Shown here in pieces: positions 1 to 55,493 of a stretch of 64,000 nucleotides of DNA. Within the stretch, counting starts at the first letter, position 1; every line of letters begins with the position of its first letter. The notes beneath the pieces were generated by a model. The model was not told the origin of the DNA and did not search any database. It was given only the letters and a program-made list of their open reading frames with translations. The position numbers and the translations under genes were made by a program. Source of the DNA: Ginglymostoma cirratum (lineage: Eukaryota); NCBI GenBank assembly GCA_024137785.1, contig JAHRHZ010000009.1, positions 12,534,406 through 12,598,405 of the forward strand, read 5' to 3'.

Positions 1-735
1 TGTACCCGTTGTGGCTTCCTCTACATCGGGGAAACCAAGCGGAGGCTTGGGGACCGCTTTGCAGAACACCTGCGCTCAGTTCGAAACAAACAACTGCACC
101 TCCCAGTCGTGAACCATTTCAACTCCCCCTCCCATTCCTCAGACGACATGTCCATCCTGGGCCTCCTGCAATGCCACAATGATGCCACCCGAAGGCTGCA
201 GGAACAGAAAATCCTATTCAGCCTGGGAACCCTGCAGCCCAATGGTATCAAAATGGATTTCACAAGCTTCAAAATCTCCCCTCTCGCAACCGCATCCCAA
301 AACCAGCCCAGCTTGTCCCCGCCTCCCTAACCTGTTCTTCCTCTCACCTATCCCCTCCTCCCACCTCAAGCCGCACCCCCATCTCCTATCTACTAACCTC
401 ATCCCGCCCCCTTGACCTGTCCATCCTCCCTGGACTGACCTATCTCCTCCCTACCTCCCCACCTACACTCACCTTTACTGGCTCCATTCCCGCCTCTTCG
501 ACTTATCTGCCTCCTCTCCACCTATCCTCTCCTCTACCCATCTTCTATCTGCCTCCCCCTCTCTCCCTATTTATTTCAGAACCCTCTTCCCGTCCCCCAT
601 TTCTGATGAAGGGTCTAGGCCCGAAACATCAAGCTTTCCTGCTCCTATGATGCTGCTTGGCCTGCTGTGTTCATCCAGCTCCACACCTTGTTATCTCGGA
701 TTCTCCAGCATCTGCAGTACCTATTACCTCTGATA
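1..735 (+). mobile_element. Penelope-like retroelement (family 1) 3' end: GIY-YIG endonuclease C-terminus, pLTR and tail
   Basis: Frame 1 is open from 1 to 330: CTRCGFLYIGETKRRLGDRFAEH...NHFN...EQKILFSLGTLQPNGI; pyrimidine-rich UTR; hammerhead motif at 603-630. Confidence 0.9.
603..630 (+). ncRNA. Minimal type I hammerhead ribozyme motif in PLE pLTR
   Basis: CTGATGA-A-GGGTC(ta)GGCCC-GAAA-C-ATC: conserved core, stem II, NUH cleavage triplet. Confidence 0.7.
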
Positions 736-737
736 CC

Positions 738-855
738 AGAAACGTTAAGTCTGTTTTTTTTCCTTCACAGATGTTGCCAGACCTGCTGAGCTTTTCCAGC
801 AACCTTGTTTTTGTTCCTGATTTACAGCATCCGCAGTTCTTTCGGGTTTTGTTTG
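738..855 (+). mobile_element. PLE family 3 pLTR/tail fragment
   Basis: gaaacgtt...ccagacctgctgagcttttccagc...; related copies on the minus strand at 6244-6340 and 9850-9960. Confidence 0.6.
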
Positions 856-1084
856 ATTTATATAATTTGGGCTGGAATGTGGAGGGCACATTTGGGACAT
901 TTTCAGACAACAAAGTAGTCATGCAATGGATATTGTAGAGGCTAGCTGTAAACTCTAAAATAGTATACATGGGTTGGTGTAGTGGACAGGAGATTGACGT
1001 GGAGTTCAACTCTGCGAAGTGTGAGGCAGTGCATTTAGGGAGATCAAGCAGTAAACGGGAATACACAATAAACAGGTCGACTAC

Positions 1085-1720
1085 CCTCCCCATTTTGCCA
1101 TCACACTTGTACTTTTAAGTAATTCTTTGTCCTCAACTTTCAAAGTAGCTGTCTGTGACTCTCGACTTTCACATTTTCGGAGAACTGACTGTGAAGTAGT
1201 CGTACTAGCAGGTTCCATTGCCTTTCTCAAAAGTGCAAAATCACAACTGGGAAAGCCAAAGTTCACAAAGGTACAGACAGGATCTGAACAATTTTCACAA
1301 GTTAGTTTCTCGGCGACATCGAGAAAACAGTGTTGACGGCGGAGGACTCAGTCAGTATCATCGTGTAGGAATGAGTCTAGATTGGGATCATTTCTCGTTT
1401 AATCCGATCGCGGAGAGCAGACCGTATCTGATGCCGATTTGCGGGATCTGGGTGGTTCTGGTTGTTCCGCTGCTCCTTGGAATCTGGGCTCAGCGGCTGC
1501 AGGTTTGTCGGGGAATGGGAGAGGCCGGAGCTTGGATCTGAGGACGGAGCTGGGACTGAAGTGGTTCTCGGTGCACCCGGGCCAGAATGATCAAGATTCA
1601 TTTTTTTAATATATGTCTGATGTGATCTTTTTCTTCATCGACAGTTAACGGTTCGCATTTCAAAATAATAGAACAAAAGGAGCAAAGGGGAGAGATTTGG
1701 CTTGTAAATAGTGGGCGGCA
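1085..1720 (-). promoter_or_regulatory. CpG-rich non-repetitive segment, possible promoter/first exon of the next gene
   Basis: About 23 CpG in 1311-1656 against a CpG-depleted background; GGGCGG near 1712; strong-context ATG (gcaATGg) opening MEPASTTTSQSVLRK... Confidence 0.3.
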
Positions 1721-1741
1721 GCCAAATACATCTCATTTTAT

Positions 1742-1840
1742 GAGATAACAAGGTGTGGAGCTGGATGAACACAGCAGGCCAAGCAGCATCATAGGAGCGG
1801 GAAAGCTTGACGTTTCGGGCCTAGACCCTTCATCAGAAAA
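1742..1840 (-). mobile_element. Solo PLE family 1 pLTR fragment with hammerhead (1809-1836)
   Basis: Reverse complement reads ctgatgaagggtctaggcccgaaacgtc...ccttgttatctc; tcattttat on both sides. Confidence 0.8.
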
Positions 1841-2543: not shown

Positions 2544-2589
2544 CTACAGTTGTGGCTGATCTCATCTTGGCCTATTACTCCAATCAAAA

Positions 2590-4875
2590 TGCAAATCTCA
2601 CACTTATCCACATGAAACTTCATCTGCCAAATTTTGTCCCAGATGCCTAACCCTACCTGTATCCATTTATATACTTCTTCATCGCAACTTACTTTCCAAT
2701 CTACTTTAGTGTCTTATGCAAATTTGGCTATAGTACTTTCTATCCCACCATCCAAGTCATTAATAGGGACTGTAAATAGTTGAGGTCTGATGACCAAACC
2801 CTCTGGCACCTCACTAATTACAACTTGCCAACTAGTAAAAGACCCATTTATCCCAATTGTCTGCCTTCTGTTGACTAGCCAATCCTGTATCTAAGCTAAT
2901 AAATTACCTGTAACCTTATGTGATCTTACCTTGTGTATTATCCTTTTGTGCAGCACCTTATCAAATACCTTCTGGAAGTTCAGATACACTATGTCTAAGG
3001 GAATCTCATTTTTCACATTGCTTGTTACGCCTTCAAAGAACTCTAGCAAATTAGTCAAACACAATTTACTCTTGATAAAACCTCTGATGGGTTGTATCTT
3101 GACATTCAAAATGTTCTGTTATTCCTTCTTTAGCAATGGATTGTAACAATTTCCCAACAACACTTTAAACTGAATCAGTCTGTTGTTTCCTACTTTCTGC
3201 CTCCCTTCCCTTTTTGAATAAGGGTGTTATATTAGCATTTTTCTATTCCACTGGAACCTTTCCAGCATCCAGGGAATTTTTGGAATACTGTAACAAATGG
3301 ATCTACTGTCTCTGTAGCCAGTTCCTTTAAAACCCACGATAACAGTCATCAGGTCCTGGAAACCTGTCTACCTTCAATCCCAATAGTTCCCTCAGTAATT
3401 TTTCCCTGGTGGTGATGATTGTTCTAAGTTCCTCTCTTCCAATAACCTCTGCTTTGCTTGTTACTGTCAATGATACTAGTGACCACCACCGTCAATACTG
3501 AGCAAAATATTGCTTTAGTGACAGTCATTTCTGTGTTCCGAACTATTAACTCCCCAGTCCCATCCTCCATATGGGACCAACATTCATTTTAGCTAGTCTG
3601 TTCCCTTCTATATACTTATGGAATCTTTTGTTGTCCATTTTCATATTTTGCACTAGTTTTCTTTCAGAATTTACCATTTGGTATTTTTAGGACTTTTTTG
3701 GAACATTTGTAGGTCTTTCAAATTTTCCCAATCTTTCAGCTTGTTACAGATCTTTGCAATATAGTATACCTTAATTTTTGTCTTTATATTATCTTAAACC
3801 TCCTTGCTCAGCCATGGATGGCTTTCCCCTCTTACAATATTTCTTCTTTTCTGGAATATCATTTAGTTGGGAGCAATTAAATAACTGATTAAACATCAGC
3901 CACTGCTCATCAATGGGGTGGCAGTGGTCTCGTGTTATTAATGCTGAACAGTTAATCCAGAGACCCCAGGTAATGTTCTGGTGACCTGGGTTCGAATCCT
4001 GCCATGGCAGATGGTGGAATTTGAATTCAGTAAATACCTGGAATTAAAGAGTCTAACAATGACCGTGGATCCATTGCCAATTGTTGCGGGGGGGGAAACC
4101 CATCTGGATCAGTAAAGTCCTTTGGGGAAGGAAACAGCCATTCTTACCTGGTCTGGCTTTAATATGAGCTCAGAACCCACAGCAATGTGGTTGATTCTTA
4201 ACTGCCCTCTGAGCAATTTGGGATGGGTAATAAATGCTGGCCTAGCCAACGAACCCTTCATCCTGTGAATGAATTAATTATATTCTCCTACTTTTTATTC
4301 TTCCCACCCAATCTCCTAGGGCCAGTTCAGCCCTCATGCCTACACGATTATCTTTGTTTAACTCCAGAAAGCTATTGTGGGACTCCAGCTTCTCATCGTC
4401 CAACTGAATTTGAAATTCTAGCAGGCTATGATCACTCTTCCCTACAGGATCCTTTACTTTGAGGTAATTAATTAATCCAACTTCATTATACAATCCTGAA
4501 TCCAGATTACCCTGCTCCCTGGTTAGTTCCACAACATATTGCTCCAAGAAACAATCTCTAATAAATTCAATGAACTCTCCATTAAGGTTACCCTTAACAA
4601 TTTGATTAATCCAGACTTTATGCATATTAAAAACACCAATGATTACTGCTATACCTTTCTTACAAGTCCCCAGTATTTCCTGGTTTCTATTCTGCCTGAT
4701 TGCAGGAGTACTGTTTGGGAACCTATAGATTACTCCCACCAGGGACGTCTTTCTCTTGCTATTCCTTACTTCTACCCAGACGGATTTTATTTGATCTCCA
4801 GTACTGAGGTCATTTCTCATGATAGCACTAATACTTTACTTACTAACAAAGCTAAATCACCTCCTTTTCCACAGT
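2590..4875 (-). mobile_element. Decayed CR1 LINE ORF2 (endonuclease and RT), interrupted by a SINE
   Basis: ORF remnants CLTNLLEFFEGVT...VYLNFQKVFDKV and SVWVEVRN...VGVIYR...KSDH. Confidence 0.85.
3915..4275 (+). mobile_element. tRNA-derived SINE with a LINE-shared 3' tail
   Basis: B-box gggttcgaatcc; tail gggatgggtaataaatgctggcc resembles the LINE end near 37000 and the short tails near 38480 and 39520; second copy on minus strand at 15135-15400. Confidence 0.7.
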
Positions 4876-4879
4876 TCCT

Positions 4880-5530
4880 TGAAGGCAGCGGGACAAAAAG
4901 AAATGGAGGTTGTGAAAGTATTTGGAATACTCGCCTTTATTGACAAAAACATTGAATATAAGAACAAGGAAGTTATGATGGGACCGTGTATAATGTTAGG
5001 CCATAGCTGGAGTACTGTGCGCGGTTCTGGTAGCCACACTATAGGAAGAATGTGAATGCAGTAGACAGGGTGCAGAGGAGATTTCCCAGGACTTTGCCTG
5101 CTTTGAAGCATTTCTATTATGAAGAGAGACTGTATTAGCCAGGATTGCTTTCCTTAAAGCAGGGAAGACTGAGGGGTGATCTGATTGAGTTCTGAGGGGT
5201 ATAGACAGGGCAGATAGTGAAAATCCTTTCCCCTTAGTGGAAGATTCAATAACCAGGGAGCACAGTTTTAAGTCAAGGAGCAGGAGATTTAGAAGGGATT
5301 TGAGAAAAATAATTTCACCCAGAGTATTTTGGGTATCTAGTACTCACTACCTGAAAGCGTGGTAAAGGCAAGGACCCTTGAAACATTAAAGAACTATTTA
5401 GATGAGCTCTTGAAATGTCATAGCATACAAAGTTATGGGTGATGTGCTGGAAAATGGGATTAGAATAGATGGATGTTTGATGACTAGCTTGGACACAAAG
5501 GGCCAAAAGGTCTCTTTCTGTGCTCCAAAA
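4880..5530 (+). mobile_element. CR1 LINE 3' fragment
   Basis: GILAFIDKNIEYKNKEVM remnant and CR1 3' UTR. Confidence 0.8.
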
Positions 5531-5834
5531 TTAATGAATAAATAATTTAATCACTTTTGTAAATTTCCATGGTAGTGGTGGTTGGCAAGCCCTCAAGGAA
5601 TCCCAAGAGCCTAGAAATGTTACAAAACTTTTCAATATATTTGTAGTGAGATAAGATAACTACTTGGAGATGGGTCAGCATACTTCTAATATATTTTCTT
5701 CAATTCAATAGTGGGTTATTCACAGGTCGGTGATTAATGCCAAACATATATAATTCCGGCATTCACAGCTTGAATAGAGTTGATTTAATAGTTATTGGAA
5801 AGCTTATTTTTGTGCTGTACTATCAAATGAGTGC

Positions 5835-6340
5835 AGAGATAGCAAGAACTGCAGATGCTAGAGTCAGAGATAACAAAGTGTGGAGATGGAGGAACGCAGC
5901 AGGCCAGGCAGCATCAGAGGAACAGGAAAGTTGACGTTTCAGGTCGGGACCCTTCTTCAGAGATGGGGAGGGGGAGGGGAACTCAGAAATAAATAGAGAG
6001 AGGAGGGGTGGGGCTGGGGAAGGTAGGTGGGATGGTGATAGGTGAGTGCAGGTAGGCAATGGTGGGGATTGGTCAGTGAGGTGGGAGGAGCGGGTAGGTG
6101 GGAGAGAAGATGGACAGGTTGTGTCAGGTCAAGGAGGTGGGATGAGGGAGGGTTGGTCATGGGATGAGGTGGGGAGATTTTGAAACTGGTAAAGTCCACA
6201 TTTAGACCATTGGGCTGTAGGCTCCCAAGGCGGAATATGAGGTTAAAAACCGAAAGAACTGTGGATGCTGTAAATCAGGAACAAAAACGAATTTGCTGGA
6301 AAAGCTGAGCAGGTCTGGCAGCATCTGTGAAGGAAGATAT
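5835..6340 (-). mobile_element. PLE family 1 3' fragment (hammerhead 5933-5960) abutting a family 3 fragment
   Basis: Reverse complement reads LGSLQPNGLNVDFTSFKIS, then ctgaagaagggtcccgacctgaaacgtc. Confidence 0.85.
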
Positions 6341-9300
6341 GGTTGTGATATCAGAATGGGTGGGTATTCTGCTGCACCAGACTACTGACCATCCAAGTGA
6401 GATGCCAATCAAACCTGTCAACTTGGAACAGAATCTTCTGTCAGCTGCCATCTCAGCACGGCCTGTTCTGCTGAGTTGCTGTGGGATTAAGTGAAAAGGA
6501 AAAGATTTAATGTGAATATGTATGAACAGCACTCAGAATTATTTGCTTTGTCAAAATTTTCTTTTGTCCCAAATGGTTAGAGCTATCAATTTTTGATTCA
6601 AGGCTTTTCAGTAGAATTTACTGAAATACCTACCCCCACCTCACCTCAATCCCCAATGGTTCCATTATTTTATTATTTGGCAAGTTTAAAAACAGGTCGG
6701 ATTTTAATAAATGAATCCTTGGAATTATGAAACTGACTTGACATCAAAATCCAGCTCGAACCAAAAAGATTTTTTCGATCAATTATTAAAAAGAAAACTC
6801 AAAGTGACAGAGCTCTTCAGACTGCCTGGACAGAGAAGTTCGCAGGGGTGTGATATTTACATTTCAGAATTTGATCTGATATCTTCTATAAGGCTTTAAT
6901 GCAGTCATGTGATTTTTCTCAACAATTTCTAATGGTCCTGAAACTTCTCTGGGAGTTCATACCATCTCTGTGAAATTACAACAGCAAACTGTGGCATCTA
7001 GCATGATTTTCAGAGCCATTTTGGGAGTGTGTGGGGGGAGTGGGGGCTAGGGCCAGTTGGGGGGAGGGTAGGGACAGTGTGTGTGGGGGTTTGGGGGCAT
7101 AGAGACTGTGTGTGCAGGGGGTGGGATTGGGGACAGTATCTATGGTTTTAAAACTGGTATCAGTGGGAGAGGAGTGAGGAGGTGGCGGGGGGAAGTTAAG
7201 GACATATAAGGACCGAGGATGGGTCGGAGTGAGAATGCCTTGTCACCATTTTCTCCGGTTCTGGTCTACACCGCACCTCACCTACTCCCTCTTCCTCTTC
7301 CCACTCATTCCCCTTCACTGCCCTCGCTCATGCCTCACTTTTCCCCCACCACTCCCCTCCTCCCCCATCCCTTCCCTCTCCCTCTCCCTCCCCACCTCCT
7401 TCCCCTTCCCCTCAGTGGGCTGTTCAGCACTTTGAGCCTGTTACAGCACTGCACTACATCGTGGATGATCTATATTTCTGTTTGCCCTCAGGTTGAAGAA
7501 TGACAAGTGGAGGACATTGAACCAGATGTTCAATCAACATAATGACAGAATCGATCAGAGAAGGGCTGAGACTGGAGACAGAGCACGGGTCTGACTGAAA
7601 ACTGGAGCACACCAATGTCACAATCACCTTAACAGCTTTGTGGAGTTTTCTTGAAGTTATCTTTGATTTGGATGCGAATATGTGTGTGTTAACTGTGGAG
7701 TGTGAGTCTAAATAACAGAGTGCTAAGCCTCCTGTATGCAAAAGCATAGTTATATGTTTGAAGAGATTATAGTTTTTGTTTTTACATTCCTCAGTGTTTG
7801 CTGCAAAGAAACAAATGTCACAATTTCAAACAAAATTAGTCACCGATGAAGATAATAATCATGGGGTAAGGTGAATATTAACTTGAACTGTTGAGCATGA
7901 CTGCGGCAGCACTGGAAGTATCCAGGGTTAGCATCATGTTTACTCTGAATGACCCCAAACAGTTGAGAAAATTCAATCAGGAGGTGACAAATAGGAGAAA
8001 GGTTGTGTTCCCCCAATGTCAGTCAGATTCTCTCTCACATGCAGGCCAGCTTGAGCTCCGCCAATCAAGGCTACCTCTTTCCTGATTTTGTTGCTGTTCC
8101 CAATCTCTTGATTGGACCTGGGGAGGTGTAGGAAGATGTGTCTGTTTTGTTCCTAAACACACAGACTTGGATTGAGATGGACAGCAAACAGTTAATATTT
8201 ACTAACACTTGAGAGTGTACACAGGGAGCTATTATCAACAATTGTACAAATCAGTTATGCTATAATGCGTGTTTCTTCGATGCAAATTGACTTTAATGCG
8301 ATTGAAGAGTTTGTAGAACGTGAACTTTCCTTACCTGTATTGGCTATAACACGATTCTGGCCCCATTAGTTTAAACGGCATGGCTATTGTGTGATGTTCT
8401 TATAACCCGAGACCACACGAGAATGATGCAAATAGAGAATTTCTTATTGCAGCTGTATTAGGTGATAGTGAGACCACCTCTGGAGTACTGTGAGCGGTTG
8501 TGGTCACCTTATCATTTCATTGGAGTCAGTTCAGAGAAGGTTTGTGAGTATGGAGGAATTGTCATTTGAGCAAAGACTAATCAGGTTGGACTGTGTTCAC
8601 TGGAGTTTAGAAAAATGAGAGGTGATCTAATTGAAACATATAGGGTTCTTAACAGGCTGTCTGCAGCTCGCACTCCGGCTGCTCAACTCAAATCTGAAGT
8701 TCCTCGAGCTGCAAACACTAAGTAGAAATGTGTTGACTCTGGATCACATTGTTGTCCAGCTGCTTCCACATGTTACAGCAGCAACACATCACCTGTTCTG
8801 CTATCACTGTCATATTTGATTAATATAGATTTTTTTTTACTCAAAATTCCTGCTCTTTATACTTCACTGTAATGATATATTGTTTTTATAAACCAAAAAA
8901 ACCCACAGTGTCAATCTAATACTTAAGCAGCCATTTTTAAGAAAGGAAAAATATTTACTGGAAACCTAAACACAGAATGAAGACCTCATTTGTACATTGG
9001 TGAATATTTCTATTCTTTAGTCCTACTCACCAAGCTAGGACTGAGGTGTCCTTAAATCAGAAAGCTTAGCATGCAGGACCAGCAAATAATTAAGCAAGTA
9101 ATTAGAACAGAGGTCTTTATTTTAAGGGGAAAGGAGTTTTTTAAATTCTTTTATGAAATGTTTGTGTGACTGGCAATGCCACTGTCTAATACTTGTCCCT
9201 AAAATTCCTGAGAAGGTGTTGGTGAGCTGCTGCCTTATTACCTTACAGTCCGTTTGGTATTGATACAACCACAATGATACTAGGGATGGAGTTCTAGGAT

Positions 9301-10474
9301 TTTCACCCAACAACACTCAAGTAATGATGATGTAGGGCTGAATGGTGATTCAATTTAGAAAGTTATGGCAAGATTGGAAAAATGATATTCTCAGTGTTGA
9401 CAGAAGAAAGCTCAATTCTGCAACCAGGTTTTAAATGGCAAGATGAGAATCTTGCTTGTGAGTGACAAGTGACCTATTTGTATGCTGTTAGTACCTAACA
9501 TTACTTCAACTATATGCAGTTTCATATTCTTTTACATGCTGGAGAGAATATAGGTGGCACCAATTCCTGATATTAAAGGTAGAGCGTGTACGTGGCGACT
9601 CTAGCTCACAGCTCACTATGGATAAGTAATCTTATAACTGAGGCTGGAGGGGTGTAAGCTGCTCTAGGGCTACTATTACATAGGTTACATCATAAACAAC
9701 ATTTTTTTCCCCAGTTACCTAGATGATCAAATAAATATGTTATCTATATTATGTTTTTTTAAAAAATTAATCAGGTTTCAAATAAAAACAAAATCATCCA
9801 TTTATTATAATCCAAAGCTTATTCAATAAACAAGCAAAATTAGCTGAAATACAGAACAAAAACAAAGTTGCCGGAAAAGCTCAGCAGGTCTGGCAGCATC
9901 TGTGAAGGGAAAAACAGAGTTAACATTTCGGGTCCAGTGACCCTTCCTAAGAACTCAAACTATAGTCTGTAATATGAAAGCATGATTTTTTTATCCCTCT
10001 AAATAACCTAAAACATACATACACAAACACAAACACACACAGATAAAGAACAGATTTTTCTGCAGAAATTGGTTTTCTGAGAGAATAAAAATATTAGGCC
10101 ACTAGATTTCAAAGGCTTGAAGAAGATAAAGATCAGGTGTGGAATGTTCATACCATCTGCCAGTGAGTGGTCTGCTGCTTATAAATAGGTCACCAAACAC
10201 ATGCAGTAGTAAGTGAGGTCTTGGCAAACACAGCTTGCTCAGGAGACACAATATTAAGAATTTTTTTTTTTTAAGTTAACATTTCCAGAACAAACACGTT
10301 TCATCCTGTACTCTCGACAAGATGGTTTTTCAGAAACAGGAGGTCAGCTATGTAGCCTGGATTTTTCCTTAATTGAAGACCAGAAGAAACTCCAAACTTA
10401 ATACTGTTCAAAAAACCCCAGAGGATGTCTTCACCAAAAAATAGCAATTATTACAAATCATACCATTTCTAGGA

Positions 10475-10611
10475 TAACAAGCATGGGGCTGGATGAACAC
10501 AGCAGGTCAAGCAGCATCATAGGAGCAGGAAAACTTGACGTTTCGGGCCTAAACCCTTCATCAGAAAAATTTTTTCGGATTCTCCAGCATCTGCAGTACC
10601 TTTTATCTCTG
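10475..10611. mobile_element. Miniature inverted PLE insertion with 15-bp TSD
   Basis: Inverted pLTR with hammerhead (10537-10564) plus direct tail; ataccatttctagga at 10460-10474 and 10612-10626. Confidence 0.85.
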
Positions 10612-10895
10612 ATACCATTTCTAGGAGCCTTTTCCAAAAAGGACCAATGTCTACAGTAATATTTCAGTTTCCTTTAAAGAAACTAATCGAGGTATCTTCA
10701 CATTAATTCATAAATTAATTTTTTCACAAATGTCCAAAGCTCAGTTGTTCAAATGTTCAAATCTGAAACATCTTCACAACCTCATCCTTGAAAAGAATGA
10801 AACATTGTTTTTGAATGTATTTCTTTGCAAAGTATGGACAAAAGTAAGTTCTTTTAAAAAAACTAAAACATTTACGTAGTTGTTATTGTTTCTTA

Positions 10896-11212
10896 GAGTC
10901 CTTACTGTATGGAAACAGGCCATTTGGCCCAACAAATCCACACCGACCCTCTGAAGGACATCACACACAGGCCATCCCCCATCCAATACTTGTCATGGCT
11001 AACGCATCTACACATCCTTGGCCACTATAGGGCAATTCAGCATAGCCAATCCACCTAACTTGCACATCTTTGAACTGTGGGAGGAAACCCACGCAGACAA
11101 GGGGAGAGTGTGGCAACTCTACACAGGCACCCAAGGCTGGAATTGAACCCAGGTTCCTGGCACTGTGAGGCAGCAGTACCAAGCACTGAGCCACTGTGGT
11201 GCTGTGCTGCCC
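10896..11212 (-). mobile_element. HE1-type SINE
   Basis: Same head, body and tail as the 2262-2543 copy. Confidence 0.85.
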
Positions 11213-11425: not shown

Positions 11426-13656
11426 CTACTGAAAACAACAAATTCTGGAGATCACAGTGAGTCAAATAGCATCCATGGAGAGAACAAACTAACATTTCAA
11501 GTCTAGATGACTCTTCATCGGAGCTGGTGAAGTGTGGAGGAAACAAGGTGTAGAGCTGGATGAACACAGCAGGCCAAGCAGCATCAGAGAAGCAGGAAAG
11601 CTGACATTTCGGCCTAGACCCTTCTTCAGAAATGGGGGAGGGGAAGGGGATTCTGAAATAAATAGGGAGAGAGTGGGAGGCTGATAGAAGATAGATAATG
11701 GAGAAGATAGGTGGAGAGGAGACAGACAAGTTAAAGAGGCAGGGGTGGAGCAAGTAAAGGTGAGTGTAGGTGTGGAGGTAGGGAGGGGATAGGTCAGTCC
11801 AGGGAGGATGGACAGGTCAAGGGGGAGGGATGAGGCCAGTAGGTAGGAGATGGGGGTGGGGCTTGAGGTAGGAGGAGGGGATAGGTGAGAGGAAGGTCAG
11901 GTTCGGGAGGCGGGGTCAAGCTGGACTGGTTCTGGGATGTGGTTGGGGGAGGGGAGATTTTGAAGCTTGTGAAGTCCACATTGATACCATTGGACTGTAG
12001 GGTTCCCAAGTGAAATATGAGGTGCTGTTCCTGCAACCTTCGGGTGGCATCGCTGTGGCACTGCAGGAGGCCCAGGATGGACACGTCATCTGAGGAATGG
12101 GAGGGGCAGTTGAAATGGTTCATGACTGGGAGGTGCAGTCGTTTAGTGCGAACCGAGCGTAGGTGTCCTGCAAAGCGGTCCCCAAGCCTCCGCTTTGCGG
12201 AACACCTACACTCGGTCCACACTAAACAACTGCACCTCCCAGTCGCGAACCATTTCAACTCCCCCTCCCATTCCTTCGACAACATGTCCATCCTGGGCCT
12301 CCTGCAGTGCCACAATGATGCCACCCAAAGGTTGCACGAACAGTACCTCATATTTTGCTTGGGAACCCTGTAGCCCAATGGTATCAATGTGGACTTCACA
12401 AGCTTCAAAATCTCCCCTCTCCCAACCGCATCCCAAAACCAGCCCAGCTTGTCCCTGCCTCCCCAACCTGTCCTTCCTCCCACTTAAAGCCCCATCCCCA
12501 TCTCCTACCTATTAGTCTCATCCCACCCCCTTGACCTGTCTGTCCTCTCTGGACTGACCTATCCCCTCCCTAACTTCCCACCTTCACTCACCTTTAGTGG
12601 CTCCACACCCACCTCTTTAACCTGTCTGTCTCCTCTCCACCTATCTTCTCCATTATCCATCTTCTGTCCGCCTGCCCCTCTCTATTTATTTCAGAATCCC
12701 CTTCCCCTCTCCCATTTCTGAAGAAGGGTCTAGGCCCGAAACGTCAGCCTTCCTGCTCCTCTGATGCTGCCTGGCCTGCTGTGTTCATCCAGCTCGACAC
12801 CTTGTTATCTCAGATTCTCCAGCATCTGCAGTTCCTACTATCTCTGGAAAGGACGGTAATTGAGATGGGGCCACGGTGAGGACCTGATAACAAGCTAAAC
12901 AAAAGGAAAAACAGTTCACAATTTAATTGAAATCAGTATTAAGTCCAGAGGTCTGTAAAGTACCTAGTCTGAAGATGAGGTGTTGTTATTCCAGTTTGTG
13001 CTGTCATTCACTGGAACACTGCAGCATGCTGAGGACAGACAGGTGGGCATGCGAGCAGTCCGCAGCATTAAAATGACCTGCCACGGGAAGGTGGGGGTCA
13101 TGGTTGTGCACAGACCGGAGGTATTCTGCAAAGCAGTCACCTGGTCTGCATTTGGTTTCTCCAATGTAGAGTAGACCATATTGGGTGCAGTGAATACATA
13201 CACAAGTTTGGAGGTGGTACAGGTGAAATGCTGCTTCACCTGGAAAGACTGTTTAGGCCCGTGGAGGGTAAGACGGAGGAGGTGAGGGGGCAAGTGTTTT
13301 AATTGTGAATTTTTAAATTGTGGACAATTTATTCCTTTTAGCTTGTTATCATGCTTCCCCTCCCCCCATCCCAGTTACTACCCTTTCAAATCTAGCAGGA
13401 GACACACCATCATTCTGTCATTCTCATATTCTGATCTCTTAATCTGAACTATTTTCTCTACCAGCATCCTGCACCCAGTACCCCCACACACCAACTCCCC
13501 ACCACCACCTCCCCAAACTATAGCATAAATGCTGTCCTCTCCACACTTCACTTCAGCTCTGATGAAAAGTCATCTAGACTTGGAAACATCAGCTTGTTCT
13601 CTCTCCATGGATGCTGGCTGACCCACTGTGATCTCCAGCATTTGTTGTTTTCAGTA
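11426..13656. mobile_element. PLE family 2 inverted-pLTR insertion inside a CR1 3' end, itself carrying a family 1 insertion
   Basis: Inverted termini of about 115 bp (actgaaaacaacaaat...gtctagatgac...cagagctg); minus-strand GIY-YIG remnant at about 12930-13290 (LLYIGETK); hammerhead at 13559-13590. Confidence 0.8.
11542..12846. mobile_element. PLE family 1 inverted dimer (arms of about 650 bp)
   Basis: 11542-12195 is the reverse complement of 12190-12810 (GIY-YIG C-terminus plus pLTR); hammerheads at 11603-11629 (-) and 12718-12745 (+). Confidence 0.9.
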
Positions 13657-18350: not shown

Positions 18351-18754
18351 CAGTTCCTTAAAAAGCGTATTGACAATCCAAAGCTGTAGCTCGAAGATAA
18401 TAACCATGATAATTATCATTAATTTTGTAAAAACTTATATAGTTCAGTATTGTCCTTTAATAAGGGCAATCTGCATTAGTTTTCTCCCATTCTAATATTT
18501 CCCATCCTGATCTTTTAATTAAATTTTGTTGCTTCTTATATTTTGTCCTATCTTCTGACTTGTCATCCACCTTTGTACCATTAATGGATTTTTCTTTAAG
18601 TTTTATAATACCTATTTCTTCCCCACCCAAAAAAAGTTTCTGCTTACCACAGAGGCTCAACCTGATAGAAAGCCAACACAAATAGAATATTCAGGTCCAA
18701 GTTAGAAAGTGTCCAGTTTGCAAAAATTCATACACCTCCTGGCCAGCATGTTCG

Positions 18755-20460
18755 TCAATTGTCTTCACAGTGGAAGACATGAGTAATATCCCAACAATTA
18801 AGGAGAGTCAGGGGGCAGAGTTGAGTATGGTAGGTATTACAAAAGAGAAAGTGCTAGAAAAGCTAAAAGGTCTGAAAATTGATAAATCTCCTGGCCCCGA
18901 TGGGCTGCATCCTAGAGTTCTGAGGGAGGTGGCTGAGGAAATAGCAGAGGCGTTGGTTGTGATCTTTCAAAAGTCACTGGAGTCAGGGCAAGTCCCAGAA
19001 GATTGGAAAATCGCTATTGTAACCCCCTTGTTTAAGAAAGGATGAAGACAAAAGATGGAAAATTATAGGCCGATTAGCCTAACCTCAGTTGTTGGTAAAA
19101 TTCTAGAATCTATCATTAAGGATGAGATTTCTAAATTCTTGGAAGTGCAGGGTCGGATTAGAACAGGTCAGCATGGATTTAGTAAGGGGAGGTCGTGTCT
19201 GACAAACCTGTTAGAATTCTTTGAAGAGGTAACAAGTAGGTTAGACCAGGGAAACCCAGTGGATGTTATCTATCTAGACTTCCAAAAGGCCTTTGATAAG
19301 GTGCCTCACGGGAGGCTGCTGAGTAAGGTGAGGGCCCATGGTGTTCAAGGTGAGTTACTGGCATGGATTGAGGATTGGCTGTCTGACAGAAGGCAGAGAG
19401 TTGGGATAAAAGGCTCTTTTTTGGAATGGCAACCAGTGACAAGTGGTGTCCCGCAGGGTTCAGTGTTGGGGCCGCAGCCATTCACCTTATATATTAATGA
19501 TCTGGATGAAGGGACTGGGGGCATTCTGGCAAAGTTTGCTGATGATACAAAGTTGGGCGGACAGGCAGGTAGTACGGAGGAGGTGGGGAGGCTGCAGAAT
19601 GATTTAGACAGTTTCGGAGAGTGGTCCAGGAAATGGCTGCTGAAATTCAACGTGAGCAAATGCAAGGTCTCGCACCTTGGAAAAAAGAATACAGGCATGG
19701 ACTATTTTCTGAACAGTGAGAAAATTCATAAAGCCGAAGTACAAAGGGATCTGGGAGTGCTAGTACAGGATTCTCTAAAGGTTAACTTGCAGGTTGAGTC
19801 CGTGATTAAGAAAGCGAATGGAATGTTGTCATTTATCTCAAGAGGGTTGGAATATAAAAGCATTTATGTGCTTCTGAGACTTTATAAAGCTCTAGTTAGG
19901 GCCCATTTAGAATACTGTGTCCAATTTTGGGCCCCACACCTTAGGAAGGACATACTGGCACTGGAGCGTGTCCAGCGGAGATTCACACGGATGATCCCTG
20001 GAATGGTAGGCCTAACATACGATGAACGAGGATCCTGCGATTGTATTCATTGGAGTTTAGAAGGTTGAGGGGAGATCTAATAGAAACTTACAAGATAATG
20101 CATGGCTTAGGAAGGGTGGACACTGGGAAGTTGTTTCCGTTAGGTGGGGATACTAGGACCCGTGGGCACAGCCTTAGAATTAGAGGGGGTCACAATTTAG
20201 AACAGAAATGAAGAGACATTTCTTCAGCCAGAGAGTGGTGGGCCTGTGGAATTCATTGCCACGGAGCGCAGTGGAGGCTGGGACGTTGAATGTCTTCAAG
20301 GCAGGAGATTGATAAATTCTTGATCTCGCAAGGAATCAAGGGCTACGGGGAGAGTGCGGGTAAGTGGAGTTGAAATGCCCATCAGCCATGATTAAATGGC
20401 GGAGTGGACCCGATGGGCCGAATGGCCTTACTTCCACTCCTATGTCTTATGGTCTTATGT
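18755..20460 (+). mobile_element. Relatively young 5'-truncated CR1 LINE (RT domain)
   Basis: SPGPDG, NYRPISLTS, YLDFQKAFDKV, GVPQGSVLGP, FADDTK; one in-frame stop (19043-19045) and a late frameshift; terminal tatggtct-like repeats. Confidence 0.95.
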
Positions 20461-22711: not shown

Positions 22712-22781
22712 AACGTCAAGTTTTCCTGCTCCTATGATGCTGCTTGACCTGCTGTGTTCATCCAGCCCCATGCTTGTTATG
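22712..22781 (+). mobile_element. PLE pLTR fragment starting at the hammerhead cleavage site
   Basis: aacgtcaagttttcctgctcc...ttgttat; tgtgggagtata on both sides. Confidence 0.7.
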
Positions 22782-32950: not shown

Positions 32951-33815
32951 TACTTGTCTGTTCCTGTGCAAATTTCAAGTGTGAAAATAGAGAGTAGAAG
33001 AACATGAAAATTGGGAGTGGGAAAGGTAGGATAATCAGATTCTGCACTTACTAGCAGTTACAGATTTCTTTTAGAGAAAGCAAAGATTTTAACAAATTCT
33101 CTGGAAGATTCTGGGAAACAATGAAGTTCAAGGAACCCGTTATAGGTCCTAACACTCCTGATCTACAAATGGACTATCAGATAACTTATTTCTTCTGTTA
33201 TCTTCTGTATATAGTATCTCCAGGATTGCTTGATTTAACAGCTACTATTACAAAGAAACAAAAAAGCAAAAAGCTCATACTAATCCATCCACAAAACAGA
33301 ATATTGAAAAGTCATGTGCAACACTGTGCCACCACAGTAATACAGACAATAATCTGTAACAACCTTTCCACTGCTGAAGCCCATTTGAACAAGGACTACA
33401 GCAATGCAAGGAAAAAGCCTGCCACCACTACCTTAGAACAGAACCTTGAACCTATTCTTTTAGAAACCATTTATGTTCCTCTAAGTGCACCATTTGGAAT
33501 CAATTCCTAGGAATTTTTCTTCAACCAAGTGAGAACGTTAAGTTCAGCAGCTTCTACCTCTTTTCTAGAAACTGCATAACCTCACATGACCCGTAGATTC
33601 TCAAACCAAAGTCAAAGGTTACCCATTTGATTTACTTATGGACAGAATGAAATGTAATTGGAAACCTTGGCTCTCGTCAATTTATTTTCCAGATTGCCTC
33701 CTTTAAAGGGATTGTCTTTTATACTTCTAAATATCCACTGATAGTAATAATGATATGGAAAATCCAACTCTCACGCACCTTAACAATAGAGGGAAGAAGT
33801 ATCACCTTTTTTCCA

Positions 33816-34059: not shown

Positions 34060-34865
34060 GAAACCTGTGCGCACTGCATGCTAGAAACTGTGCATACAAC
34101 ACATCTGAAAACCAGGCACAACTTGTGCCGAAAGCCGTGCAAAGCGCGTGCCGATAGCCGTGCACAGCCCGTGCTGATAGTCATGCACAGCGCATGTTAA
34201 TAGTCGTGAACAGCGCATCTTGAAAACCGTGCACAGTGCAAGCCAATAGTCATGAACAATGCTTGCTGGTAGTAACGACAGCACATGCTGATAGTCGTGC
34301 ACAATGCATGTTAATAGTTGTGTATGGCGCATGTTGATAATCGTGCACAGCGCATGCCAAAATCTGTGCACAGCACACACCGATAGTCGTGAACAGCGCT
34401 CGCTGATTGTAATAAACAGCACATGCTGGTAGTCGTGCAAAGCACATGCCAAAATCCACGCACAGCGCATCCTGAAAACCGTGCACAGTGCACGCCCATA
34501 GTCATCAACAGCGCTCGCTGATAGTAATGAACAGCACATGCTGATAGTTGTGCACAGCATATGTTGATGATCGTGCACAGCACATGCCAAAAGCCATGCA
34601 CAGCGCATCCTGAAAACCGCACACAGTGCATGCTGATAGTTGTGCACAGCGCATGCCAAAAGCCGTGCACAGTGCATGTTGAAAGCTGTGCACAGCTCAC
34701 TTTGAAAGTTGTGTATACAAAGCACATGCTGAAAGCCATGTACAGTGCATTCCAATAGTCATGCACAGTGTATACTGAAAATGTGTACAAACAGCACATG
34801 CTGAAAGTTGTGCACAGTGTATATTGAAAGCCGTGCACAGTGCATGTTCAAAGATGTGAGCAACA
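34060..34865. repeat. Degenerate 23-bp minisatellite (about 35 units), consensus close to TGCACAGCGCATGCTGATAGTCG
   Basis: Visible 23-nt periodicity; variant cagcgcatc(c/t)tgaaaaccg recurs at 34211, 34463 and 34601. Confidence 0.9.
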
Positions 34866-35049
34866 TACATAGAAACCTTTAACACATGCAGAAATCCATT
34901 TACAATTGCTTGACAAACTTAACTATTACCCAAGATGAATACATGAAACTTATATATGTGTTTTAGAGATAACTTTAGGTAAAAAGCACTTTCAAAGAAA
35001 CAGGTCTTTAAAAACAAAGCATTTCACTTCCTGTGAGAAATAGGTCAGG

Positions 35050-35450: not shown

Positions 35451-35962
35451 TTCTATGCCTGCATGCTGCAAAATCAGGATATTATCCAGCACAGGCTGTT
35501 AAATAGCAAGTAACATTTGTATCCCATAAGTGCCAAGTAATAATCATCCATTCTGCTTTGACAGGTTCCGAGATGGATGATAAGTATGATGTACACGCTT
35601 CGTTACAAGCATGGCATGTGGTTCTCAAAAGGTGTGTAATGCATTGATAGGACGGTTATGTGCTCCCTGTAAGTGCCCTGATTTCCTCTCTGCATGTTCC
35701 TGTCGAAGTCTCTCAATGCTACTGGTGCCTTCCAAACCAGCCTTCTTGATTTTGGTGGATCACATCACCATCTCCTGTGAGCCAGTGGGGAGATGACTGT
35801 TTAGGGATGTTTTGAAAGTATCCCCAGGTGTGTCCATAACCTTCCTGCGAGCCTCTTGCCACAACCTAGTTCCAAGTAAAGCGGTTGCTTTCGGATCCCG
35901 ATGTCAGGCAAATGAACATGTGAAGATCTGGTTTTGAGGGAAGCTGGGCAAATTAGCTGTAA

Positions 35963-36532
35963 TAACAAGGTGTGGAGCTGGATGAACACAGCAGGCCAAG
36001 CAGCATCAGAGGAGCAGGAAGGCCCGNNNNNNNNNNNNNNNNNNNNNNNNNNNNNNNNNNNNNNNNNNNNNNNNNNNNNNNNNNNNNNNNNNNNNNNNNN
36101 NNNNNNNNNNNNNNNNNNNNNNNNNNNNNNNNNNNNNNNNNNNNNNNNNNNNNNNNNNNNNNNNNNNNNNNNNNNNNNNNNNNNNNNNNNNNNNNNNNNN
36201 NNNNNNNNNNNNNNNNNNNNNNNNNNNNNNNNNNNNNNNNNNNNNNNNNNNNNNNNNNNNNNNNNNNNNNNNNNNNNNNNNNNNNNNNNNNNNNNNNNNN
36301 NNNNNNNNNNNNNNNNNNNNNNNNNNNNNNNNNNNNNNNNNNNNNNNNNNNNNNNNNNNNNNNNNNNNNNNNNNNNNNNNNNNNNNNNNNNNNNNNNNNN
36401 NNNNNNNNNNNNNNNNNNNNNNNNNNCGGGCCTTCCTGCTCCTCTGATGCTGCTTGGCCTGCTGTGTTCATCCAGCTCCACACCTTGTTATCTCAGATTC
36501 TCCAGCATCTGCACTTCCTACTATCTCTGAAA
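35963..36532. mobile_element. Inverted PLE family 1 insertion spanning the assembly gap, 14-bp TSD
   Basis: Mirror-image pLTR ends flank the Ns; caaattagctgtaa at 35949-35962 and 36533-36546. Confidence 0.8.
36027..36426. other. Assembly gap (400 N)
   Basis: Run of n. Confidence 1.
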
Positions 36533-36559
36533 CAAATTAGCTGTAAGTTGGCTTCATAC

Positions 36560-46703: not shown

Positions 46704-46817
46704 ACCCGAAACGTCAAGCTTTCCTGCTCCTGTGACGCTGCTTGGCCTGCTGTGTTCATCCAGCTCCACACCTTGTTATCTCAGATTCTCCAGCATCTGC
46801 AGTACCTATTATCTCTA
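46704..46817 (+). mobile_element. PLE family 1 3' fragment starting inside the hammerhead
   Basis: cccgaaacgtcaagctttcc...cctattatctc. Confidence 0.8.
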
Positions 46818-47579
46818 ACCAAGAAAATCTGTCATCCTCACCTGGTCCAGCCTACCTGTGACTCCTGACCCATAGCAATGAGGTTAGTTCTTAAGAGCTT
46901 TCTAAATTTGCAATTAACTACAATGTTTGATAAAATAACTAAGATTATGGCAGCAGATATATAGGAACAACGACAGTGTTGACTCTGTAAAGTCCTTTTT
47001 ACTATCAACTGGGGACTTGTGCTGGAATTGGCAAACTGTACCACAGACAAGTCAAGCAACAACCTGACATAGTCATACTCATGGAATCATACTTCACAAA
47101 CAGTGTCCCAGCCAACACCATCACCTCTTTCCAAAGAGTTATGCAAAATTATGTCCAGTGCCTTCAATTCCTCCTCTCTAACCTCTTTTGGGATTCTGGG
47201 ACTACACAATAGTGGAGTCTGCTGATTTTGCTGTCTTAGCTTCCTAAAATAAAGTTTTGTTTTGAATGTTCACTTCTGCCTCTCTTGCTGATATTGTCAC
47301 CTTTTCTGGTGTTGCTTTGCTAAAGCAAGCAGAGAAAGTCTATAGCATGTTTGTGCTGGGAAATATGAGAAGGCAGAGATTGGGCATTTGCACCTGGAGA
47401 GCTGAACATAATTCTTTAGATTTATGAACACTTGAATAGTCATAACTTTCAAAGCAATGGGCCAAGTGCTCGAGTATGGGACTAGTGCAGCTTTGGTGGT
47501 ATAGACTCAATGGGCTAAAGGTCATCTTCTGTACTGTAATGATTCTATAATTTATGAGGAGACTTGCAGATGACCTGCA

Positions 47580-47910
47580 GGGATAGCATGGTGACTCAGT
47601 GGTTGGCACTGCTGTCTCACAGTGCCAGGGACCAGGGATCAATTGCAGCCTTTGGTGACTGTCAGTGTGGAGTTTGTAAGTTCTCCCATTTCCTCCTACA
47701 GTCCAAAGATGTACAGATTAGGTGGGAAGGCCATGTTAAATTGCCCCATAGTGTCCAGGAACATGCAGGCTGGTGGATTAGCCATGGTAATGCAGGGTTA
47801 CGGGGATAGGCTGTGGGGTGATGGGTCTTGGTGGGATGGTCTTCAGTGGGTCAGTGCAGACTCAACAGACTGAAAGGCTTCTTTCTGCACTGTAGGGATT
47901 CTATGATTCT
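47580..47910 (+). mobile_element. HE1-type SINE
   Basis: tRNA-like head gcatggtgactcagtggtt...; tail ctgtagggattctatgattct. Confidence 0.85.
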
Positions 47911-52255: not shown

Positions 52256-52401
52256 CTTATAGAAGAAATATTGGACAAGTTGGGCGATCCTTATGTAATA
52301 ATAGTGACCATGGACAAGCAGCAACTTCTTCAGATGTTTAAACTTGGGAATACAATAATCACTGTTTCGAGCAGCTTGACGGCCTTCCTTCCCCAAAATA
52401 C
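52256..52401 (-). CDS. ATP11A: ATP11A exon ([48 protein letters not shown])
   Basis: [13 protein letters not shown] and YFFYK (TM5); acceptor ctcaag, donor gtgggt; 146 nt, phase 1-0. Confidence 0.95.
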
Positions 52402-53951
52402 CTTGAGAAACAAAACCTCAGGTCGTCGAACACTCAAAGAATGAAAATAGCCACAACAGAAGTGGATTTTGAAATATGCACATTGTATCTTCATCTGTTT
52501 CCCTCAAAATATCCTTCTCACTGTCCCTTAGGTCTATTTGTGAGTACAGAATTTAGGTAGGTATAACTGGTCAGGATTAGGATCAGAACACCTGCCTGTC
52601 CATGAATTATTGACACTGGCCTTGCTTGCATTCACAGGGCTCAGCTCAGTTACACACAGTTAGGCAGCATAGCAATGTAAAATGTGAAGAATATTCTGGC
52701 AAGAAGTTGAGGAAACATGTTGCTTCAGGATTCAAATGTAAAAGCTCCTTAGGAGAAGCCAGCAGGTAAGTAATTTGTCTTACAATATTGCTCAGCATGT
52801 TATATATCATTTGCATACACCTCAGTTATGTTCAAGAGAATATTGAAATTTTTCCATGCACTGTTAATTCCATGGAAGCCCTTTTTAAAATGTGTCAGAC
52901 GGCTCAACTCATGTTCCAACACAAAATCACAGATTGCTGGGGCTAAATACAGTAGATGCAGAGAGATTTTTTATCCTTGTGGGGAAATCTATGACCCAAT
53001 GGGTACAATCTCAGAATATATGGGTATGCATTTAAGGCAGAGGTGACAATGAATCTCTTCAGAGGGTAGTAAATCTGTGGAATTCGTTACCACAGAGGGC
53101 TATCAATGCTAGGTTGTTAAGTAGATTCAGTGCTGAGATACACATTTTTAATCAGTAAGGGAATCAAAGGTTGAAGGGAAAGGGCAAGAAATTGGATTTG
53201 AGCATAAGATCAATAATGATCTCATTGAATGACTTGACAGGTTAAACAGCCTACTTCTGCCCCTAAATCATATGGTCCTTGTGGTTTTAAAAGATTTTCT
53301 CAACAGGGAGGTCTGTTTTGACAGCTGAAGAAAATTGTTGACTTTCCTTGACTGATAAAATTAAATGGTTACAATGAATTGTTAGACCACTATCTCTTTT
53401 ATCAAGGAAAGGATTTGCAAATGGATGAATTTTCTGAGCAGTTCCACATGTGCCATTGTTACTATATCATTCACTGGTGCTATACATAAAATAAATTTGG
53501 TGAATAGAATGGATCGGTATGGAATGCATTGATATGTATGTGGCATGGGGAGTAGATGAATTGATATGAGTGAGTTGAGGTCTAGACGGCCTTACAACCT
53601 GTAATGCAATTGGGAAAAAGTCCCATAAGACTAAGGCAACCTTTCTAATAGCCAGCCTTAGCAGTCACCCATCCTTGAGACTGCAAATACTCTGGGTCTG
53701 GGGTTAGTAAGCTAAACTCCATTGCATACCTACATCCTGCAGTGAAGATTGGGACATTTTGGGTGACTTTCTGCCAAAACATGTAGTGAGTTAGGAAGTT
53801 TCCCAACTGAAGGTCCCCTCCCTGGAAATAAATTCTGGGCCAAAGTGATTGAACATGGAATAAGCATGAAGTGGCAAAAGAGCCAGTCCATGTCTAAGTT
53901 ATGTTGTTGAAGGTTTTTTGATAAGATCTAAAACATGATGACTACAAGGAC

Positions 53952-54351
53952 ACAGCAGGCCAAGAAGCATCATAGGAGCAGGAAAGCTTGACGTTTCAGG
54001 CCTAGACCCGTCATCAGAAATGGGGGAGGGGAAGAGGGTCCTGAAATAAATAGGGAGAGAGGGGGAGGCGGATAGAAGGTGGATACAGGAGAGGAGAGAT
54101 GGGATGGTCCCCGCCTCTTTGACTTGTCTGTCTCCTCTCCACTTATCCTCTCCTGTATCCATCTTCTATCCGCCTCCCCCTCTCTCCCTATTTATTTCAG
54201 GACCCTCTTCCCCTCCCCCATTTCTGATGAAGGGTCTAGGCCCGAAACGTCAAGCTTTCCTGCTCCTATGATGCTGTTTGGCCTGCTGTGTTCATCCAGC
54301 TCCACACCTTGTTATCTCGGATTCTCCAGCATCTGCAGTACCTATTATCTC
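53952..54351. mobile_element. Inverted PLE family 1 pLTR insertion with 13-bp TSD
   Basis: Arms of about 150 bp; hammerheads at 53990-54017 (-) and 54224-54251 (+); tgactacaaggac at 53939-53951 and 54352-54364. Confidence 0.9.
54224..54251 (+). ncRNA. Minimal type I hammerhead ribozyme motif (consensus-like copy)
   Basis: CTGATGA-A-GGGTC(ta)GGCCC-GAAA-CG-TC; GUC triplet; palindromic ACGT in place of helix III. Confidence 0.75.
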
Positions 54352-54811
54352 TGACTACAAGGACTTCCAGGAGGCATTTGGGAGGTACAATATCAGGAAC
54401 ATTTTCTGATTGTTGAATGAGAGTGGTGTTCCTTCTGGTTTAAGTTCTGGAACTTCAGATTTTCACTATGGATATAGGAGTGTGCAGAATTATCAAGTGA
54501 AGGCTAATGGCCTCCTTCTGTTTCTGCACCACTTCTGATGTAATCAACGTGGTTACAATTTCTATTTGCATTTGGAAGTTGAATGGCTGAAGTAGATTGT
54601 GAGCAATAGTGGGTAATGAGACAAGATATTAACTAAATCACAGACTTACAGATGAGGATCATATTTCAGCCTAAGATCAAAGTCCTATAGATTAAATGGT
54701 TCCTAATTTCTACCTCCACTGAATACTGTGACACAGAGATCCTACCAGGTATTAACCACAAACCAAAATATAAAGATCAAAACATGTTTTAAAATGAATA
54801 GTTAATTTTAC

Positions 54812-54914
54812 CGATTCCAACATGGGCTTCCAAAATCATACTGACATCATTCGCCCCATCACCAATTGCCAATGTTATGGGATGTTCTTTTGAAGATTTG
54901 ATTAATTTAACAAT
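54812..54914 (-). CDS. ATP11A: ATP11A exon ([35 protein letters not shown])
   Basis: P4-ATPase GDGAND hinge motif; acceptor ttgcag, donor gtaaaa; 103 nt, phase 0-1. Confidence 0.96.
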
Positions 54915-55493
54915 CTGCAAATCAAGGTTAAAGGAACAAACATGGATTAAAGTTTATGCAAGTTTAATATCCTTCGATCGCATTGCATCACAAAATAATG
55001 TTGAGGACAGGGACTTCGAAATTCCCTTACTTCATGACTCATTCTCCAACACACACCAACCTATGGATCCACAGCCTGTACTGATACTGAAAATATCAGA
55101 AAACATAATAATGGAGTGCTAACTTGGTGGCAAGTGTGGAAAAAGACTCACAGTTAACATTTCAGGTCGACTTTTCATCAGAAATGACTTCTGAACTGAA
55201 ATATTAACACTGTCTCTCTCTCTCTACGTACATGCTGCCAGATCTGCTGAGTATATATAGCACTTCACTTTATTTCCGGATTTCCAGCAAAGACAGCGTT
55301 GTGTTTGCCATAATAATTCTACTTGATATAACAACTTAGCTCCCCTAAAATTTCGGACTTACTGCGAGCAACACCGTGAGCAATTTCATACACATTCAAA
55401 ATGTAAGCTTAAAGTATGTTTTCAAAGAAACAGTCAATGTAATTCAGCAATGACTTAAAATTTATAATAGACAGACAAGTATTCAAGCCTAAC

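Follow-up and report, generated by a model that had tools for sequence, protein, structure and literature searches.

How do hammerhead ribozyme motifs come to be scattered along a single stretch of shark DNA, and was the RNA that carried them cut or whole when it was copied into the genome? We addressed these questions in a 64,000-nucleotide stretch of Ginglymostoma cirratum (contig JAHRHZ010000009.1, positions 12,534,406 to 12,598,405), hereafter the window, for which an initial annotation had listed eleven intact hammerhead cores and three damaged copies belonging to three families of Penelope-like elements (PLEs). We conclude with high confidence that the motifs are minimal type I hammerheads located in the pseudo-long terminal repeats (pLTRs) of three PLE families, and that they lie on truncated, decaying insertions, most of them probably derived from uncut RNA. 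Roughly one sampled copy in three starts immediately ahead of the motif, at a boundary that, judging from the copies themselves, likely marks the start of the element RNA. We further propose, tentatively and with somewhat less than even confidence, that the hammerhead starts at the transcription start with stem I on the first base, that short copies record the capped, uncut 5′ end, and that the ribozyme acts as a 5′-leader switch. This is a known ribozyme class in a known class of retrotransposon, in a host group that the papers we consulted do not cover in detail. Our search found nothing on these shark families; it covered neither subscription journals nor Repbase/Dfam and bioRxiv supplements, which may hold them.

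Hammerhead motifs in the window

A regular-expression scan recovered all 11 annotated cores, and the three damaged copies were confirmed near 9945 (core start gone), near 11519 (U4 changed to C) and at 26533 (G12 gone). The minus-strand coordinates first reported are the low ends of the motifs; residue C3, which we set to 0 in numbering the copies, lies at 1836, 5960, 10564, 11629, 31987, 54017 and 55181, and cleavage is predicted after +27. Fewer motifs are intact than had been claimed. A strict descriptor, which demands the hammerhead core, four or more base pairs in stem II and two or more in stem I, is passed by seven of the 11 cores (C3 at 603, 1836, 10564, 12718, 31987, 54017 and 54224) and has no match in 50 shuffles of the window. 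The remaining four have a broken stem I (5960), one lost stem II base (11629), an additional G ahead of GAAA (13559), or a loss of loop II together with stem II pairing (55181). Helix III, annotated as palindromic ACGT, retains this palindrome in five of the seven passing copies, but reads ACAT at 603 and ATGT at 31987, both the result of CpG decay. An Rfam scan of the window returned no hammerhead family at E ≤ 5. Its miRNA-family matches at 54.0–54.2 kb, all below gathering scores, correspond to an inverted repeat and were rejected.

Stem pairing, abundance, and conservation across the genome

A genome sample of 130 regions at fixed positions (939,629 non-N bases of 1.3 Mb) yielded 69 descriptor matches, compared with none in five shuffles and none in the reversed sequence. 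N7 is indeed the varying core base in these matches (T 32, A 25, G 12). An additional base after A9, a feature outside the descriptor, is present in 68, and helix III has CG or GC in 45, with TG/CA decay in 23 of the other 24. To keep the test of stem pairing non-circular, we also scanned without any stem requirement. This gave 132 matches in 1,003,229 bases, whereas 20 shuffles gave 120 in all, or ~6 each. Stem II positions are paired in 111–121 of the 132, and stem I positions 1–3 in 114, 111, and 83, respectively, whereas ~40% of either stem is paired in shuffles. The 10.1–11.1 pair is G-C in 80 and G-T in 33 of these matches.

Stem sequences vary between families, both in stem I (ATTT/AAGC, AGTT/AACT, AGCT/AGCT, TGCA/TGCG, ACAC/GTGC) and in stem II (GGGTC/GACCC, GAGTC/GACTC, GTTAC/GTAAC, GGAG/CTCT), and the differing sequences still pair in six sequence families. 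Two-sided covariation appears only between families. The covariation initially reported for stem II is mostly G-U wobble change within one family, and the fifth stem II pair that had been drawn cannot close a 2-nt loop. Core columns are invariant in 16 representatives, apart from misaligned GAAA positions. Additional minimal hammerhead families with wholly different stems were seen, namely D (loci L111, L122, L190, L238), E (L197, L224, L250), and a further one at L245; in family E, AGCT replaces ACGT as helix III.

The motifs are abundant. An exact 35-mer has 14,314 matches in the 4.36-Gb genome, and a 28-mer from the tail has 27,810, with no match to either reversed control. Extrapolation from the sample gives ~700,000 family A end pieces, a rough figure that excludes masked regions, and the genome background of descriptor matches is ~76 per Mb. 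Core and stem II survive in 57 of the 98 copies that span the motif, and in 40 the palindrome is retained as well. The excess conservation of core bases expected by the initial annotation exists overall, with 96.7% at core positions versus 91.4% in the tail, since the positions at which subfamilies differ lie outside the core; it does not extend to G12, which lies within a CpG, is only 86% conserved, and decays freely like the CpG of helix III. The pattern is that of selection in active source elements followed by neutral decay after insertion, with selection visible between subfamilies and families. Since inserted copies decay neutrally, core conservation among genomic copies is a poorly aimed refutation test.

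The carrier elements

The left end of the window illustrates the carrier. It begins with the end of a family A open reading frame (ORF), stop codon included, that encodes the C-terminal GIY-YIG endonuclease (1–330, plus strand; Pfam E 0.011, below the cut-off). The protein encoded by bases 1–327 is 88% identical to one from whale shark and 84% identical to one from zebra shark, which points to a carpet shark as the likely host. A CT-rich 3′ untranslated region (UTR), or pLTR, follows (331–598, plus), then the minimal hammerhead (599–634, plus; C3 603), which is predicted to be cut after 630 and whose helix III has decayed to ACAT, and post-ribozyme sequence that includes a 35-nt tail (635–733, plus), next to a family C tail at 735–850. 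The 100 kb upstream of the window are N, and the remainder of this element lies outside readable sequence.

Long family A copies contain a 724-aa frame with a reverse transcriptase (RT) domain (RVT_1, E 1.6e-6) and a GIY-YIG domain (E 4.5e-4), both slightly under Pfam cut-offs; none of the long copies displays a single uninterrupted full-length ORF. The linker between RT and endonuclease is of the CX4CX2C type (CNRRKCDTC), and a CX2-5CxxC linker is the mark of Neptune and Nematis among PLEs (PMC8557442). A family A unit is ordered as ORF end, 270-nt CT-rich UTR, hammerhead, leader, and ORF start. A search with an N-terminal probe found the ribozyme region running directly into the ORF at six of 30 loci, with the likely ATG ~135 nt past the cut site. 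The leader carries a 28-codon upstream frame (MMLLG...), also present at 645–731 of the window, that is in frame with the main ORF; in each of the six junction copies (L152, L153, L154, L169, L174, L178), this frame stops at a TGA 12 codons ahead of the likely ATG. The ORF N-terminus itself contains an Ala/Thr/Asp/Pro-rich repeat of variable length.

Families B and C sit 220–275 nt behind more distant endonuclease ends (one and three of 19 rows; window 26806–27054). The pLTR location of the hammerhead is thus confirmed in families A, B, and C, and further PLE hallmarks, including a pLTR tandem, an inverted truncated arm, and a 30–40-nt tail, are present. Both the count of three families in the window and the assignment to the known minimal type I hammerheads of PLEs, with their extra base after A9, stand for this shark. 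Copies are solo or head-to-head, and no tandem array of hammerheads occurs in the window. In unstranded poly(A) RNA, 8,541 of 12.9 million reads match the RT-coding region, which shows transcription of copies, not promoter activity.

Copy ends and two-armed insertions

We mapped the ends of 168 family A copies from the window and random regions (1.0-Mb sample). The 3′ flank is clean in 167 of them; the copy stops near +94 in 75, near +128 in 72, and elsewhere in 20, placing the two major sites 35 nt apart. Two-armed insertions (n = 29) combine one arm of each 3′ class in 21 cases and never the same class twice; in the other eight, one arm falls outside the classes. This pattern matches what has been shown for an anole element, in which RT starts at two internal sites and both strands are extended (PMC11167929), and it matches the one-sided tail in PMC3846280. 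Inverted junctions centred on the ACGT of helix III were seen in seven of 100 listed copies (for example, C3:7936132-7936191 and C9:38596451-38596922) and may represent plain microhomology joining. Assembly gaps of 400 N are frequent at the centres of two-armed insertions (window 36027–36426 and many loci), so such junctions are under-sampled.

The 5′ ends are strikingly clustered. After 22 copies beside N were dropped, 45 of 146 clean flanks begin at −8 to −1, against five expected from the rate at +10 to +59, and they concentrate at −3 to −5, the first bases of stem I. Near the cut site (+27 to +31), only six of 146 begin, versus 3.2 expected (p 0.11); a pile-up at this position in our first small sample was gone in the larger random sample. 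In family C, where, as in D and E, counts come from all loci collected and not only random ones, about 41–43 of 92 5′ ends lie at −7 to −1; the pile-up is weak in family E (six of 22 at −3 to −1). Genome-wide, 5,781 exact-core copies begin within −7 to −3, as judged by unrelated bases at −9 and −8. We considered and rejected a splice acceptor where the ribozyme begins, as there is no AG at −4 and the upstream flanks of short copies are unrelated.

A probable transcription start at stem I

Stem I begins at −4, which is the A of CCATTTC in family A or of TCAGTTC in family C. The initiator consensus is YYANWYY, and both sequences fit it. When a cap is copied, it usually leaves a non-templated G before the start base. 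Such a G stands ahead of the A in 22 of 36 non-C cases (p 5e-6; hand tally, 100 of 5,781 copies listed) and in eight of 16 solo loci (p 0.03), a set that partly overlaps the former. Slippage at the end of an RNA would be expected to extend the T run, and a longer run is seen in 38 of 110 truncated copies but in none of 65 extended ones. The promoters of PLEs lie inside the element and resemble initiators (PMC2377424, PMC3846280). Judged from the ends of the DNA copies, transcription of family A likely starts at −4.

These features can be assembled into a proposed mechanism. Transcription would start at the A in CCATTTC, so that the ribozyme would occupy the opening 36 nt of the transcript and stem I could be only 3–4 bp long. 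On either nicked strand, RT would initiate at one of two internal sites, +94 or +128, and run off an uncut, probably capped 5′ end to generate the 100–135-nt copies. Two cDNAs joined head to head would produce two-armed insertions with target-site duplications (TSDs), and longer copies would arise from read-through tandem transcripts. In active elements, a slow protein- or dimer-assisted cleavage after GUC is predicted, which would take off the first 31–32 nt with the cap or split tandem transcripts into units. Single minimal hammerheads do not cut in vitro and dimers cut weakly (PMC4209133); the anole PLE combines internal RT starts and protein-assisted hammerhead cleavage with insertion from uncut RNA, and cleavage is dispensable in vitro (PMC11167929). 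Because many 5′ ends fall at the start of stem I and few at the cut site, the short copies most likely represent cDNA made from element RNA whose 5′ end was uncut. We infer that most integrated cDNA derives from uncut RNA, with copies from cut RNA amounting to at most a percent or two.

Several observations weigh against this account. The start site rests on DNA, and none of the 12 family D copies contributes to a 5′ pile-up at the ribozyme. The G excess is absent from loci outside the −9/−8 pattern (G 4, A 15, T 1), mostly two-armed junctions, and from two-armed insertions (G 2, A 10). In addition, 29 of 94 scored 5′ ends fall at +28/+29, a modest excess (p about 0.01) beside the predicted cut. 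Finally, in the predicted monomer fold, the core pairs with the cut site (−9.3 kcal/mol versus −2.6 for the stem I and II frame), and the two halves of the dimer are predicted to pair via stem II rather than helix III; folding models ignore tertiary contacts, and we did not count such non-hammerhead minimum-energy folds as evidence either way.

The most serious alternative is that the pile-up at −3 to −5 marks a preferred RT stop after the ribozyme, or ATTT microhomology joining of cDNA ends to T-rich targets or to each other, rather than a transcription start. The extra T runs at the junction, the A/T-rich sequence of many two-armed junctions, and the subsets in which the G excess is missing all favour such a stop or joining, as does the preference of the anole enzyme for ATT targets (PMC11167929). 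However, the peak is also sharp in solo copies (24 of 88 at −7 to −1) and recurs in family C at a different sequence, TCAGTT, whereas the similar ATTTATTTC 40 nt upstream gathers few 5′ ends. A structural stall would moreover be expected 3′ of the stems, where RT first meets them. We regard a stop or joining origin as unlikely, though it deserves a hearing.

The +28/+29 excess suggests that some copies were templated by cut RNA, a reading to which we give low credence. Across +23 to +32, a hand tally of genome-wide matches gave 10, 7, 10, 3, 8, 15, 14, 9, 10, and 8 ends (94 scored among 100 listed; six rows with deletions or ambiguities were left unscored), so +28 and +29 reach 15 and 14 compared with 3–10 elsewhere, and both visible arms of the window pair at 35962–36538 begin at +30. 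Against cut templates stand the near-background counts of the random sample at +27 to +31 and the sequence itself, since +28/+29 are A residues within an AAGCTT palindrome, where microhomology draws apparent starts. Even at face value, the excess corresponds to roughly 1–2% of copies.

It is improbable that the 100–135-nt copies form a separate, self-amplifying non-autonomous family resembling short interspersed elements (SINEs) or retrozymes: their common start, TSDs, and very high copy number would suit one, but they carry the subfamily variants of long copies, their ends vary continuously, the sample contains no tandem arrays, and their boundaries match the RT starts of the autonomous element.

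If the 5′-leader switch is real, uncut RNA would be the template, and cut RNA without a cap would be destroyed or translated cap-independently. In fungal viruses, cleavage close to the 5′ end can allow translation without a cap (PMC13725137); by analogy, this may be one use of the cut, with decay the other. With such a switch, it would be understandable that helix I is short in the minimal hammerheads of metazoans, and these would gain a function beyond unit-length processing. The shark copies constitute a very large natural data set on PLE hammerhead function, and their ends yield two specific predictions: capped RNA starts four bases ahead of the core, and uncut RNA is the source of most integrated cDNA.

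Insertions and other features of the window

Four two-armed insertions of the window are flanked by TSDs of 10–15 nt. The one at 10473–10617 (15-nt TSD) has a minus arm with an intact hammerhead (C3 10564) and a plus arm reduced to the tail; that at 31899–32050 (10-nt TSD) carries C3 31987 on the minus strand; that at 35962–36538 (14-nt TSD) has both visible arms beside a 400-N gap; and that at 53950–54354 (13-nt TSD) is joined head to head, with C3 54017 (minus) and 54224 (plus) both passing the descriptor. Another two-armed insertion, at 11542–12846, is joined near 12190, with endonuclease ends on both arms and hammerheads at C3 11629 (minus, stem II damaged) and C3 12718 (plus, passing).

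The remaining family A copies include a solo short copy running from −3 to +94 (1742–1839, minus), with an intact hammerhead (C3 1836), an extra T run, and a 9-nt TSD; an older subfamily copy with an endonuclease end and a broken stem I (5834–6268, minus; C3 5960); and copies beginning inside the ribozyme at +22 (22712–22786, plus; 11-nt TSD) and at +17 (46705–46816, plus). Family B is represented by a copy with a mutated core U4 (11427–11539, minus), by an endonuclease end (12929–13189, minus) with a plus-strand pLTR bearing the damaged C3 13559 hammerhead (12929–13656 overall), and by an endonuclease end with UTR and the hammerhead at C3 26533 without G12 (26438–27054, minus). A family C copy at 9854–9947 (minus) lacks the core start, and a broken hammerhead without loop II occupies 55150–55190 (minus; C3 55181). 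Pieces of one PLE family adjoin the 3′ ends of another, C after A at 733–850 and B after A at 11427–11542, which suggests insertion into existing PLE ends.

Host exons of an ATP11-type P4-ATPase lie on the minus strand at 33801–60242, with the stop codon near 33801. Their best PDB match is ATP11C (E 2.5e-7); the paralogue name ATP11A is our tentative assignment from sequence motifs. Four copies had been described as sense to the ATP11A pre-mRNA. Two of them, 54017 and 55181, lie within introns in the sense orientation, but 31987 and 26533 lie 1.8 kb and 7.3 kb past the stop codon, and, with 55181 and 26533 broken, 54017 is the only intact intronic sense copy. Although 54017 is intact and 31987 might sit in a long 3′ UTR, the idea that such copies cut or regulate the pre-mRNA merits hardly any credence: two of the four are broken, density in the gene equals the genome background, family A and C pieces occupy both strands within it (three and three), 54017 is half of a 400-nt inverted repeat and would pair with its partner arm, and single minimal hammerheads remain uncut in vitro (PMC4209133). 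A special role for these copies is not borne out, and the insertions likely have no role for the host gene. The last ATP11 intron contains a degenerate 23-nt tandem repeat of ~30 units (34096–34870), just upstream of the final coding exon.

Two other repeat types were seen. Frames of 119 and 340 aa at 18686–20065 (plus), with shorter relics near 2743–3062, 4281–4835, and 31317–31658, presumably represent a CR1-type LINE reverse transcriptase. A 300-nt dispersed repeat of ~70% identity (2263–2549, 10890–11202, 47575–47761, 55892–56064, and 62009–62323) is what we take to be a shark SINE.

Comparison with known systems

The closest ribozyme counterparts are the minimal hammerheads of metazoan PLEs (Cervera and De la Pena 2014, PMC4209133), which share the CUGANGA/GAAA/UH core, one base between A9 and 10.1, the G10.1-C11.1 pair, a palindromic 15.2–16.2, a short helix I, and a distribution as mostly dispersed singles with opposite-strand pairs 100–700 bp apart. 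The present motifs differ in their shark host, the searched part of that paper's supplement holding no shark, Callorhinchus, or Leucoraja match, and have a stem II of 4–5 bp. Their copy number is far above the 4,000–9,000 given there for coelacanth and Xenopus, with the caveat that the descriptors differ.

As for the carriers, Neptune-clade PLEs with an endonuclease (Craig et al. 2021, PMC8557442) share the RT, the CNRRKCDTC linker, the C-terminal GIY-YIG, the pLTRs, the inverted 5′-truncated arm, and the one-sided tail. The likeness to Neptune rests on the linker, which Nematis has too; the same paper calls the role of PLE hammerheads unclear. The Penelope elements of Drosophila virilis (Schostak et al. 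2008, PMC2377424) and bdelloids (PMC3846280) share a promoter and initiator-like element inside the pLTR, an inverted pLTR with a tail, and 8–10-nt TSDs. No intron was identified in the shark elements, unlike in those Penelopes, and the accessible parts of the two papers do not state a start site coinciding with hammerhead stem I. Non-LTR retrozymes (bioRxiv 10.64898/2026.07.22.740005), for which one chondrichthyan was sampled, share type I hammerheads from PLE pLTRs; retrozymes are tandem, whereas the copies described here are dispersed or head-to-head.

The nearest mechanistic parallel is Poseidon of Anolis carolinensis, PAc (Frangieh et al. 2024, PMC11167929), which likewise has a hammerhead at the pLTR–ORF junction, two RT start sites that set the tail, extension of both strands, and an uncut RNA template. 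The shark elements are distinguished by their Neptune-type linker, by having both RT starts upstream of the ORF, and by a likely ATG that lies ~135 nt after the cut site rather than within the hammerhead as in PAc.

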